This document shows, in pieces, positions 42,495-47,511 of a stretch of DNA of 64,000 nt. The position numbers and the translations under genes are program-made. Location of the stretch: positions 6,457 to 70,456 of the forward strand of contig CASEVP010000014.1 of the NCBI GenBank assembly GCA_949291345.1, given 5' to 3'. Source of the DNA: an uncultured Ruminococcus sp. (lineage in GTDB: Bacteria; Bacillota; Clostridia; Oscillospirales; Ruminococcaceae). Numbering within the stretch: the stretch's first letter is position 1; each line of letters opens with the position of its first letter. Below the pieces are notes generated by a model. It saw only the letters and a program-made list of their open reading frames with translations, made no database searches and was not told the origin of the DNA.

Positions 42495-43424
42495 CTACTT
42501 TTTCTTATACTTAAATAGTATAATTGTTACCAGCGCTGTCAATGCTACTGCTACAACTGTCGGAAACCATGTATGTTCCGCTCCAGGCAGATCGTACGTA
42601 TTCATTCCATAAAAACTAAATACCATTGTAGGAATTGCCAAAATAATGGTAATCATGGTCAAACGCCACATGACAATATTCAGATTATTGGAGATGACCG
42701 AACCGAACGCCTCTACAACACCAGACAAAATATCGGAGTAAATACTCGCCATTTCTTGAGCCTGTTTCAATTCAATTAACACATCTTCCAACAGATCTTG
42801 GTCTTCCTCATAAAGTTTGACCACACGTCCACGTAAGATTTTATTCATTGTAACATCGTTGGATTTTAACGAAGTAGAAAAGTAAATCAGTGATTTTTCT
42901 AATTCCAGCATTTGAATAAGTTCTTGATTTTTCATCGCACCATGCAATTTCCGCTGCATCACGCTGGATGTCTTATCAATTTGTTTCAAGTATACTAGGA
43001 ATGAAGAAGTAATGTTCATCATCAGACGCAGCACAAACTGTGTGCGAAACTGCGTCTGAATATTGCGAATTCTTCCGCTGACAGCATCGTCAATCACTTT
43101 ATTTTCACGCAAAGATATCGTAAAAACATAGTGATCCGTCAAAATGATACCAAGTGGCATGGTGTAGAAAATCAGCGTATCATCCTTCTGTACTTCTGAC
43201 ACTGCTGTATCTACGATAATAAGCGTTTGATTTTCTTCTTGTTCCACACGTGAGGATTCTTCTTCATCCAGTGAAGATTTCAAAAAATCGCTGTCCAGAC
43301 CATAATCTTCAATTAACATTTTGCGTTCCTGTGCAGTCGGATCCACTACAGATATCCAACATCCAGGCGAAATTGCATCAATTTCAATCAATCGGTTTGC
43401 CACCGTCTTATAGTATGAGATCAA
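42495..43424 (-). CDS. corA: CorA-family magnesium transporter
   Basis: DEEESSR, SNNLN, YGMN signature between two C-terminal TMs; TTG start after AAAGGTGG. Confidence 0.93.
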   Translation of the reverse strand: MISYYKTVANRLIEIDAISPGCWISVVDPTAQERKMLIEDYGLDSDFLKSSLDEEESSRVEQEENQTLIIVDTAVSEVQKDDTLIFYTMPLGIILTDHYVFTISLRENKVIDDAVSGRIRNIQTQFRTQFVLRLMMNITSSFLVYLKQIDKTSSVMQRKLHGAMKNQELIQMLELEKSLIYFSTSLKSNDVTMNKILRGRVVKLYEEDQDLLEDVLIELKQAQEMASIYSDILSGVVEAFGSVISNNLNIVMWRLTMITIILAIPTMVFSFYGMNTYDLPGAEHTWFPTVVAVALTALVTIILFKYKKK

Positions 43425-43467
43425 ATCGGATACCACCTTTCCGCAAAGGCAGACCGAATACGCCGCA

Positions 43468-43551
43468 TCAGCTGCCCTTACAAATTATCCATGTGTTTTT
43501 CCGGTTGCCGTACATTACTTTGCATGGCAAGGGATACGGGTCAGCGTTCAT
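43468..43551 (-). CDS. Putative proline-rich leader peptide of corA (27 aa, MgtL-like)
   Basis: AGGAGGT RBS, ATG, MNADPYPLPCKVMYGNRKNTWIICKGS; lies between the corA promoter and corA. Confidence 0.72.
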   Translation of the reverse strand: MNADPYPLPCKVMYGNRKNTWIICKGS

Positions 43552-43605
43552 GCTGCACCTCCTACTCTATCATACGATTTATTCGGCAAATTTGCCGTTC
43601 ATTTT

Positions 43606-43634
43606 ATTATAACAGAAAAAACCGCCTTTGACAA
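43606..43634 (-). promoter_or_regulatory. Sigma-A promoter for the corA leader and corA
   Basis: TTGTCA-17 nt-TATAAT with TG extension; -35 lies inside the inverted repeat AAAAACCGCC...GGCGGTTTTT (43616-43644, probable upstream terminator). Confidence 0.7.
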
Positions 43635-43852
43635 GGCGGTTTTTGTAAATTCTCCATTTTTTCTTATAAATTTTAAGCGATGCCAAACAAGATTTACACC
43701 TTAAAATGCAGTCAATTTTTTCAACAAATAAAGCAAAGGCAACACAGATACCTTGACATACATCAGGAAAACTTCAAACAATGTAGTAGAAAAAACACAA
43801 GTATATACTTTTCAAAAAAAGATCGAGAGTCTTTACACATACAACGTTGCCT

Positions 43853-44731: not shown

Positions 44732-44971
44732 TCAAAGACCAGCATGGAATGTTCTGGAAATGACATCATCTTGCTGTTCCTTTGTCAGCTTAATAAAGTT
44801 TACCGCATAGCCGCTGACACGAATCGTCAGTTGCGGATACTTTTCCGGATGCTGCTGTGCATCCAGCAATGTTTCACGATTCAAAACATTTACATTCAGA
44901 TGATGACCACCTTTTTCAGCATAGCCGTCCAACAATCCTACCAGATTTTCAATTTGCTTTTCGTTTGCCAT
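44732..44971 (-). CDS. Stand-alone glycyl-radical domain of PFL (79 aa; GrcA/YfiD-like)
   Basis: [18 protein letters not shown]...[16 protein letters not shown]; own strong RBS AAAGGAGG. Confidence 0.93.
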
Positions 44972-45028
44972 GATAAACTCCTCCTTTAAGAATTTACAAC
45001 AATAGCTGCATTTTTGAGCAAAAAAGTT

Positions 45029-45238
45029 TTACTCATCTTCTATAAATTCAGTCGGCTGACAACATGCCATGTTTCCTTTTGAGCAATCCATACTCCGATA
45101 AGTCTTTACACTCATGCCGTCACTCATCAGTTCATCTTCTGAAATGGTCAAATGACCGCTGCCATTTTCCATCAGCTTTTCAATCATATCGACCAATTCA
45201 TCAGACTTATCCTGATCTTTCAGTTCATGTTGTGCCAT
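45029..45238 (-). CDS. Small acidic Cys-containing protein inside the pfl operon (69 aa)
   Basis: AAGGAGG RBS; fills the gap between pflB and the radical-domain gene; N-half resembles the radical-domain N-terminus. Confidence 0.82.
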   Translation of the reverse strand: MAQHELKDQDKSDELVDMIEKLMENGSGHLTISEDELMSDGMSVKTYRSMDCSKGNMACCQPTEFIEDE

Positions 45239-45282
45239 GACACTCCGCCTCCTTCCAAAATTTTAAAACCTTTTGCGTTTGA

Positions 45283-47370
45283 TTATTCTTTTTCCATTGC
45301 TTCACGAATGGAGGCAATATCGATATCACCTGCAAATACAGAAGAATCCTTACCTAAAGCATCCGGAATAATGGTAAATGTATTCGAAATGCCATCCTGT
45401 GCATTCTTCCATGGCAGTTTCGCAACAGACGCCATAGATGCTGCTGCACCGTGTGTATCACGACCATGCATCGGGTTTGCACCAGGAGCCAACGGCTGAC
45501 CCTTCTTACGACCATCCGGTGTGTTACCGGTCTTTTTACCGTATACTACGTTGGAAGTAATAGTCAGGATAGAAGTTGTCGGAACACCGTTTCTATAGCA
45601 ATAATTGCTGCGGATCATATCCATAAACTTATTCAGGATTTCTACTGCAATGCTGTCTACACGGTCATCATTGTTGCCATACTTCGGGAAATCGCCTTCA
45701 ACTTCAAAGTCTACTACTACACCATATTCATCACGAATGCACTTTACCTTTGCATACTTAATTGCAGACAAGGAATCAGCAACAACGGACATACCAGCGA
45801 TACCAGTTGCAAAGTAGCGCTTGACATCTCTATCATGCAGTGCCATTTGCAATGCTTCATAACAATATTTATCGTGCATATAGTGAATGCAGTTGAGCGT
45901 ATCTACATATAGCTTTGCCAGCCATTCCATCATATCGATGTACTTTTCCATTACATCGTCATAATCCAGATAATCGCCTTCTACTTTGCGATACTTTGGA
46001 CCCACCTGATTATGCTTGCCGGTCTTTGCATCGATTCTTTCATCAACACCGCCGTTAATTGCATACAGCAAGCACTTCGCAAGATTTGCACGAGCACCAA
46101 AGAATTGCATTTCCTTACCAACACGCATAGAAGATACACAACAAGCAATCGCATAATCATCGCCGTGTGTCACACGCATCAAGTCATCGTTTTCGTACTG
46201 GAATGAAGAGGTGTTGATAGACAACTTTGCACAATAATGTTTAAACGCTGTCGGCAATCTCTTAGACCACAGTACAGTCAGGTTCGGCTCCGGAGCAGTA
46301 CCTAGGTTTTCCAGTGTATGCAGATAACGGAAACTGGTCTTAGTAACCAGCGTTCTGCCATCGATACCCATACCGCCGATAGATTCAGTTACCCACTGCG
46401 GATCACCGGAGAACAATGCGTTGTATTCAGGTGTTCTAGCAAACTTTACCATACGCAGCTTCATAATAAAGTGGTCAATATATTCCTGTGCCTGTTCTTC
46501 TGTCAAAATGCCATTTTCTAGGTCACGCTGAATATAGATATCCAAGAATGTGGAAGTACGACCGAGGCTCATTGCTGCACCGTTCTGATCCTTTACTGCT
46601 GCAAGATATGCGAAATATGTCCACTGGATTGCTTCCTTCGCATTGGCAGCCGGCTTAGAAATATCATATCCATACTTGGAAGCCATGTTCTTCAAAGCCT
46701 TCAGTGCCTTAATCTGATCTGCCAATTCTTCACGCAAACGGATCTTTTCTTCTGTCATCGTACCACAAACTGTAGACTTCTGATACTCCTTGTCTGCAAT
46801 CAGACGATCTACACCATACAATGCAACACGACGATAATCACCAATAATACGACCACGGCCATACGCATCCGGCAAACCAGTGATAATTGCATTATGACGA
46901 GCAGAACGCATCTCTGGTGTATATACATCAAATACACCCTCGTTGTGTGTCTTTCTATAGTGCTTGAAAATGTAACTAATCTCCGGATCTACTTCATAGC
47001 CATAAGACTTACATGCCTCTTCTGCCATACGGATACCGCCAAACGGCTGCAACGAACGCTTGAGAGGCTTATCTGTCTGCAAACCAACGATCTGCTCCAG
47101 ATCTTTGTGAATATAGCCTGCATCATGTGAATCTACTGTAGATACGATTTTGGTGTCCATATCCAGGACGCCGCCATTTTCACGTTCCTGCTTAAACAGC
47201 TCCATTACTTCGTTCCACAGTGTCTTTGTTGCTTCTGTCGGTCCTGCCAGAAAACTCTCATCGCCCTCATACGGGGTATAGTTCTTCTGAATAAAATCCC
47301 GTACGTCGATCGACTTTTCCCATGCACCGCCGACGAAACCTTCCCATGCGTTTGCCATAGTATCTGCCAT
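45283..47370 (-). CDS. pflB: Pyruvate formate-lyase lacking the C-terminal glycyl-radical domain
   Basis: [23 protein letters not shown], active-site IACCVS, PGANP, DGISNT; stops 20 aa after ALGKD with no RVSGY. Confidence 0.95.
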
Positions 47371-47511
47371 TTTTTTAATCTCCCCTTTGCTGGAAATCCA
47401 GCGGAATTTATATTGGATTTTTTGCAAATCACAGCTGACTTTTAACAGAAAACCGCATCACATTTCTGTCGCTTTTTTTCTTATCTTCCAGCTGTGTTTT
47501 GATCTGTCTTA

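Follow-up and report, generated by a model that had tools for sequence, protein, structure and literature searches.

A conserved Asp-Pro leader peptide upstream of corA in Clostridia as a likely ribosome-operated attenuator of a CorA channel gene

Sequence comparison places a start codon, a strong ribosome binding site and an Asp-Pro pair at a fixed codon position upstream of corA across many genera of the Clostridia. This short upstream open reading frame (uORF) is likely to be a ribosome-operated translational attenuator of corA, and the condition that it senses is probably low Mg2+; the probability of this reading is put at about 0.72. The uORF was analysed in a stretch of 64,000 nucleotides from an uncultured Ruminococcus sp. 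(hereafter the window), in which 27 codons on the minus strand encode the leader peptide MNADPYPLPCKVMYGNRKNTWIICKGS. The ribosome itself is likely to be the Mg2+ sensor, since the conserved Met-x-x-Asp-Pro uORF lies within RNA that is predicted to hide or expose the Shine-Dalgarno (SD) sequence of corA. The folds are predictions, and the Mg2+ signal and the behaviour of the ribosome are inferred by analogy with MgtL, mgtQ and corL.

Results

The corA locus and its leader

The leader peptide begins MNADPYPLP, with proline at residues 5, 7 and 9, and its ORF lies with a textbook ribosome binding site between a predicted promoter and corA, exactly where the first-pass annotation had located it (Table 1). 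Transcription of the leader would start near position 43599. In 48 of 54 relatives a -10-like box occurs no more than 170 nt 5' of the uORF, a count made without a control. The overlap between the -35 hexamer and the terminator-like hairpin of the preceding pfl/pflA genes is also seen in several loci of the same genus. The pyruvate formate-lyase at 44732-47427 (minus strand) appears as a 714-residue body, a 69-residue ORF and a separate 79-residue glycyl-radical-like piece, followed by the activase.

Translation of corA most likely begins with the TTG at 43424 rather than the GTG at 43436, because the latter falls inside the SD sequence and the starts of the orthologues align at the TTG. The product does not reach the curated cut-off of TIGR00383, the corA equivalog, and it is the sole CorA found in the window's genome. 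In that genome, which is 80% complete, no MgtE and no over-cut-off MgtA were found, the Rho RNA-binding domain was not found, and EF-P is encoded. The earlier assignment to a Ruminococcus-like organism agrees with the 91% identity of corA to that of Ruminococcus callidus ATCC 27760 (a named record), in which the leader likewise begins MNADPYPLPC.

Pfam and NCBIfam hold no family for the leader peptide, and an exact look-up in a protein collection gave no entry for the peptide or for CorA as read from the TTG. No Rfam family reached its gathering score in the window, and nothing meaningful appeared at E ≤ 5 around the leader. Eleven sequencing runs match the locus, at the level of contigs; one of them is recorded as RNA and spans 162 nt within corA, while three more (probably DNA or not on record) extend over the leader and show no differences. 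Transcription attenuation by an intrinsic terminator was considered and rejected, since no terminator-like site lies between the uORF and corA.

Table 1. Features of the corA leader region in the window
Feature	Position	Strand	Remarks
Predicted sigma-70-type promoter, TTGTCA-17-TATAAT, extended -10	43606..43634	-	11/12 consensus match; best promoter-like site of the region
Terminator-like hairpin ending the upstream pfl/pflA genes	43617..43644	-	Contains the -35 hexamer of the corA promoter
SD sequence of the leader ORF, strong, AGGAGGT	43557..43563	-	5 nt 5' of the ATG
Leader ORF, 27 codons, MNADPYPLP...	43468..43551	-	N-terminus alone conserved; tail and length variable
Asp4-Pro5 codons, conserved core, putative pause or abort site	43537..43542	-	Synonymous changes only in codons 3-7 of 23 same-genus leaders
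RNA segment 1	43526..43541	-	Codons 4-9 here; predicted OFF-state partner is segment 2
RNA segment 2 (anti-anti-SD)	43461..43484	-	Last uORF codons and stop; predicted to pair with segment 1 or 3
RNA segment 3 (anti-SD, core 43452-43445)	43441..43460	-	Predicted to pair with segment 2 (ON) or the corA SD (OFF)
RNA segment 4, SD sequence of corA	43432..43440	-	
corA, CorA-family channel, YGMN motif, 309 residues from TTG	42495..43424	-	PF01544, E 2e-47

Conservation of the uORF upstream of corA

Regions upstream of corA orthologues were scored for an SD sequence and a start codon, with Asp-Pro among the first five codons. Such a uORF was found in 23 of the 24 same-genus loci that have upstream DNA (the window's genome included). 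Outside the genus but within the family the count is 43 of 80 loci, namely 30 of the 40 closest corA orthologues and 13 of the 40 next. Beyond the family it was found in 1/4 corA loci from other families of the order and in 8/29 from other families of the class. The same test picked out 5 of 1207 genes in the window's own genome, corA being one of the five, and none of 68 reverse-complemented leaders. A GGAGG-like motif lies 6-9 nt 5' of the start in 53 of 54 leaders, the SD sequence being part of the selection. Across the whole genome, sites with an SD sequence and a start codon carry Asp4-Pro5 in just 9 of 7852 cases, which, together with the conservation of the element, argues that the leader ORF is not a chance occurrence.

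A pattern scan of a genome collection in which corA itself was not used returned at least 119 loci. Among the matches listed, 43 of the 46 with Clostridia or Bacillota in their record titles, from which the grouping was taken, precede corA, as against 1 of the 73 others; these and the conservation counts are not independent events, since the genomes are kin and corA leaders served as the basis of the pattern. One listed match, titled Alistipes (L222), has a clostridial leader and corA, possibly through a mis-binned contig or transfer. As judged from these comparisons, the ORF is a real, conserved leader peptide of corA across many genera of Clostridia.

What is conserved in the peptide is narrower than had been claimed. 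The first-pass annotation, which gives the start of E. coli MgtL as MEPDPTPLPR, had described the leader as proline-rich and as sharing the DPxPLP register of MgtL. The family-wide consensus is (M/V)-(N/S)-(P/A/T)-D-P, in which Asp4-Pro5 is the sole general feature, so that 'proline-rich' does not describe the leader in general. The Asp-Pro start is indeed shared with MgtL and is kept among relatives together with the ribosome binding site and the start codon, whereas Pro7 (25/54 leaders) and Pro9 (10/54) are features of the genus or of a subclade. Pro3 is present in 23 of 54 relatives and Glu2 in none. Consistent with this, a search of 151 family genomes for the exact motif MxxDPxP with an ATG start matched the corA leader in the window's genus alone; family-wide, the uORF is often GTG-started and without Pro7. 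Variants with Gly-Pro, or without proline, also exist among the uORFs.

In the 23 same-genus leaders codons 3-7 spell ADPYP and change synonymously alone, all four proline codons are used for Pro5, and divergence begins at codon 8. Moreover, in two relatives (L072 and L028) the Asp-Pro pair is displaced by one whole codon. Synonymous-only changes and whole-codon shifts point to selection of the coding type on the leader codons. Part of the codon conservation operates at the RNA level, since the Asp-Pro codons double as RNA segment 1 and GAC is favoured for the aspartate (47/54 leaders, compared with 26% in the long ORFs of the genome). The tail sequence and stop position of the uORF are free to vary, and its length is 13-37 codons apart from two longer outliers. 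In the closest relative (L002, genome G006) the leader carries an insertion of ∼180 nt that gives a uORF of 82 codons, with both ends and segments 2-4 kept.

A predicted four-segment RNA switch

Folding predictions suggest that pairing of segment 1 with 2 and of segment 3 with 4 hides the corA SD sequence, and that pairing of segment 2 with 3 exposes it. This predicted switch, missing from the first-pass annotation, would supply the output. In most relatives segment 1 is made up of the spacer, the start and codons 2-5. About 20 base pairs are possible between segment 2 (43484-43465) and segment 3 of the window leader, the fold of which is stronger than that of shuffled sequences (z = -2.9).

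With a drop of more than 2 kcal/mol as the threshold, masking of a ribosome on Pro5 lowered the computed cost of opening the corA SD sequence in 32 of 51 leaders, compared with 27 of 204 shuffles, and the cost returned once the modelled ribosome had passed codon 9-11. The full 1:2/2:3/3:4 topology was present in 46 of 64 leaders and in 100 of 640 shuffles. Cognate segments paired better than swapped ones for 1:2 and 3:4 (0/5000 permutations); the swap test for 2:3 was modest (37/5000), the segment picks are noisy, and GC content and kinship are uncontrolled in these tests. A cruder measure, a rise of more than 0.3 in SD accessibility, gave a weak signal (10/51 leaders versus 12/255 shuffles); the mean unpaired probability of the SD sequence is a poor discriminator, and the opening-energy and topology tests were therefore used instead. 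Masking of the whole ORF opened the SD sequence in 15 of 51 leaders, which is of the reverse sign; in most of these the uORF ends no more than about 20 nt from where corA begins. The folding counts leave out L002 (the long insertion), L068 (no stop before corA) and L073 (a long spacer); L015 has no upstream DNA.

The window leader itself does not pass the coded topology test: even with no ribosome its fold is 2:3, favoured by 5 kcal/mol. Its opening cost shows no drop (3.8 versus 4.2). In the model its corA SD sequence is unpaired with a probability of 0.47-0.49 both without a ribosome and with a ribosome on Pro5, and of 0.12-0.16 with a ribosome at the stop. It is thus predicted to be an atypical variant in which the SD sequence is open also without a ribosome. 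In typical leaders the modelled ON state needs a ribosome that dwells on codons 1-7, whereas in the window variant a ribosome that has aborted would suffice; both are predicted to close when the ribosome reaches segment 2. The earlier proposal of ribosome-based control of a CorA channel is plausible, with the qualification that the Pro7 and Pro9 codons to which it appealed also base-pair in the predicted fold.

M-box riboswitches on the same gene

The M-box is the usual explanation for Mg2+ homeostasis in Firmicutes. As had been noted, there is no M-box here: none was detected at the Rfam gathering score in the window, nor in the 80% complete genome. Within the family the M-box occurs in just 16 of 151 genomes, as against a uORF leader before over half of the corA orthologues surveyed, and in none of the 40 genomes with the closest corA. 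In one genome of the set (G158), an M-box lies 170 nt 5' of the corA orthologue and, at the level of the class, 6 of 20 loci have an M-box 5' of the orthologue. Since a validated Mg2+ sensor precedes the same orthologue in relatives, the corA gene is tied to Mg2+. In two of these six loci (L355 and L356) an Asp-Pro uORF follows the M-box, and in one an acidic variant does so. The uORF does not strictly replace the M-box, and the two elements can, from their arrangement, alternate or stack on the same gene. Tandems of an M-box and then an acidic or Asp-Pro uORF, before corA or mgtE, were seen at L355, L356, L357, L287 and L325.

Other Mg2+ transport genes

None of 25 mgtE genes is preceded by a strict Asp-Pro uORF. 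By eye, and without a control, about 15 of these loci have an SD-led uORF that starts Met-Asp or Met-Glu, often with proline near codon 5. SD-led Met-Asp uORFs are numerous in the mgtE upstream regions (L311-L340), and one of them (L319) combines Asp2 with Pro-Tyr-Pro at residues 5-7, as in the window peptide.

Among CNNM/CorB-type proteins 8 of 50 start with Asp-Pro as judged by eye, and one such protein is encoded in the window's genome, which thus has both the corA leader and an Asp-Pro-starting CNNM gene; 6 of 1252 genes of that genome start in this way. The CNNM protein in question (L090; contig C82 of the window's genome, G000, from 1825, plus strand) starts Met-Glu-Ile-Asp-Pro and is among the nine genomic sites with an SD sequence, a start codon and xxDP. 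Before a second CNNM gene (L089; contig C59, upstream of 1250, minus strand) lie an Asp-rich ORF of 34 codons, the SD sequence of which is poorly spaced, and a hairpin with a U-run; the folding model found no SD switch in this leader. Of five exporter uORFs modelled, two have reverse polarity and three have no switch. At L035 and L110, where acidic uORFs precede CNNM genes, the SD sequence is modelled as closed (about 10 kcal/mol) until the ribosome is past codon 10-16 and open (about 3) thereafter. An N-terminal intrinsic ribosome destabilization (IRD) sequence on an exporter has already been proposed for E. coli ybeX/corC. An acidic N-terminus before a membrane helix, as in CNNM genes, may also be topological.

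These observations lead to a tentative proposal, somewhat more likely to fail than to hold in full, that Clostridia possess a ribosome-run Mg2+ regulon with one short N-terminal acidic/proline code of both polarities. Through their uORFs the importers (corA and, with looser motifs, mgtE) would be turned ON when the ribosome falters, and CNNM/CorB-type exporters, through their own N-terminus or a reverse-wired uORF, would be OFF. The single Asp-Pro would be the minimal sensor, in some lineages stacked behind an M-box.

Discussion

In the mechanism proposed for the corA leader, a ribosome at low Mg2+ would dwell, stall or repeatedly abort at Asp4-Pro5. Held early, it would cover segment 1 and never reach segment 2, so that the 2:3 stem would form and CorA would be made. 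When Mg2+ is ample the ribosome would run through segment 2 to the stop, the 3:4 stem would form and corA translation would be shut. The output is likely to be translation initiation rather than Rho termination, and the peptide itself is likely to have no role after release.

The most serious competitor, to which a clearly smaller but real share of the probability is given, is that the same uORF and RNA switch sense a general slowing of early translation (a shortage of prolyl-tRNA or EF-P, limitation of phosphate or ATP, or ribosome-targeting antibiotics), with Mg2+ as one input at most. In the model it is enough for a ribosome to be held anywhere on codons 1-7 to open the SD sequence, Pro5 looks more constant than Asp4 once variants with K-P-G-P and D-x-G-P starts are counted, and the genome encodes EF-P. 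Against this, the element is linked to genes for Mg2+ transporters (43/46 among the scan matches listed), and these genes are shared with the M-box; moreover, neither this peptide nor the conserved N-terminus has a Pro-Pro pair, the consecutive proline codons of an EF-P-dependent polyproline stall, which makes EF-P dependence doubtful.

The two remaining explanations dispense with sensing by the ribosome or with sensing altogether, and both are improbable. If the leader were an RNA-only, riboswitch-like Mg2+ switch, the ORF would be a by-product of conserved paired nucleotides, as the pairing of codons 2-9 in the OFF fold, the GAC bias and the freedom of the uORF tail and stop position might suggest; such a switch does not account for a strong SD sequence and start codon at fixed spacing, for third positions that vary while residues stay constant, or for whole-codon shifts of Asp-Pro. 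In addition, a MAFFT alignment of the leaders (mean identity 41%), in which segment 2 is unaligned across leaders of variable length, shows no conserved aptamer-like core, and there is no Rfam match. Slightly less probable again is that the uORF sets the basal level of CorA constitutively, as a standby or coupling device. In about a quarter of the leaders the uORF does end close enough to corA (20 nt or less from its start) for the 3:4 stem to be melted by a terminating ribosome, but most uORF stops lie 27-76 nt upstream of corA, and coupling needs neither Asp-Pro at codons 4-5 nor the conserved 1:2 helix. A ribosome-operated attenuator that probably senses low Mg2+ thus remains the preferred reading.

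A search of openly available full-text literature found no such leader described in Clostridia, although an earlier listing may exist elsewhere, and control of this type has, as far as found, been tested only in E. coli and Salmonella. Surveys of small ORFs and RNA motifs (PMC5737381, PMC11109978, PMC6429828, PMC8040213, PMC13009471) contain no such leader in term searches of their main texts, and none appears in the supplementary files covered from PMC8040213 and PMC8632094. If confirmed, ribosome-based Mg2+ sensing would not be an enterobacterial speciality; abundant gut Clostridia would use it as a main route, with translation initiation and not Rho as the output. The dozens of natural variants around one conserved Asp-Pro offer a ready series with which to separate proline stalling from acidic destabilization, a question shared with MgtL and corL, and Ruminococcus callidus ATCC 27760 (L200) is a cultured organism that carries the leader.

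Comparison with known systems

The closest likeness in logic is to mgtQ of Salmonella, an 8-codon uORF before mgtB in which, as reported in PMC8092293, a 2:3 stem frees the mgtB ribosome binding site. The two share a uORF before a Mg2+ importer, control of translation initiation and an acidic residue near the N-terminus; in mgtQ a ribosome on region 1 permits the 2:3 stem, which captures the anti-RBS, and this is matched here by prediction. The uORF of mgtQ is, by contrast, intergenic, encodes 8 residues and needs Asp2 and Glu5, its proline codon being dispensable in the account given there, whereas the corA leader is a 5' leader in Clostridia, mostly of 13-37 residues, with conserved Asp4-Pro5.

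In MgtL, EPDP after the initiator methionine causes translation to abort, an effect that is stronger at low Mg2+ (10.1101/2021.02.02.429294). The peptide shares with the present leader the Met-x-x-Asp-Pro start (MEPDPT in the same source), many relatives here having Met-Asn/Ser-Pro-Asp-Pro, and also mutually exclusive stems by which poor elongation turns the importer ON (PMC11552253). MgtL differs in its target, the P-type ATPase mgtA, in Rho-dependent termination and in PhoP/PhoQ (PMC11552253). The clostridial uORF, too, is a short ORF in the 5' leader of an importer gene, that of the CorA channel and not of MgtA, and has NADP in place of EPDP, with one acidic residue fewer; it has no match to the Mg_sensor RNA family in Rfam, Rho was not found in the 80% complete genome, and the predicted output is SD sequestration. 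An IRD sequence is rich in D/E/P over the six residues that follow the initiator methionine, and its hallmark is Pth-sensitive accumulation of peptidyl-tRNA, which low Mg2+ or loss of bL31 enhances. The density used for DE/P-rich segments is four in six (10.1101/2021.02.02.429294), and the clostridial motif is weakly acidic by comparison; residues 2-7 of this peptide and of 44 of 54 leaders contain three, below that threshold, and four occur in just 3 leaders, whereas residues 4-9 of this peptide reach 4/6.

The corL uORF of E. coli and Salmonella (PMC11552253) also precedes corA, is Mg2+-responsive and is translated inversely to corA expression; corL and the gammaproteobacterial 'corA motif' (PMC6429828) are, in these sources, described for Gammaproteobacteria alone, with Rho dependence and rut sites (PMC11552253), and no Rfam family matches the clostridial leader. 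The M-box (ykoK) riboswitch, RF00380, does the same job on the same genes and precedes the corA orthologue in relatives; it differs as an aptamer that binds Mg2+ directly, usually with a terminator (PMC4072509), and no RF00380 match is present at this leader. Overall, the mgtQ-like logic and the MgtL-like start are known, and what appears to be new is their combination before a clostridial corA, in an element that is neither MgtL, as defined by EPDP and Rho, nor an M-box.
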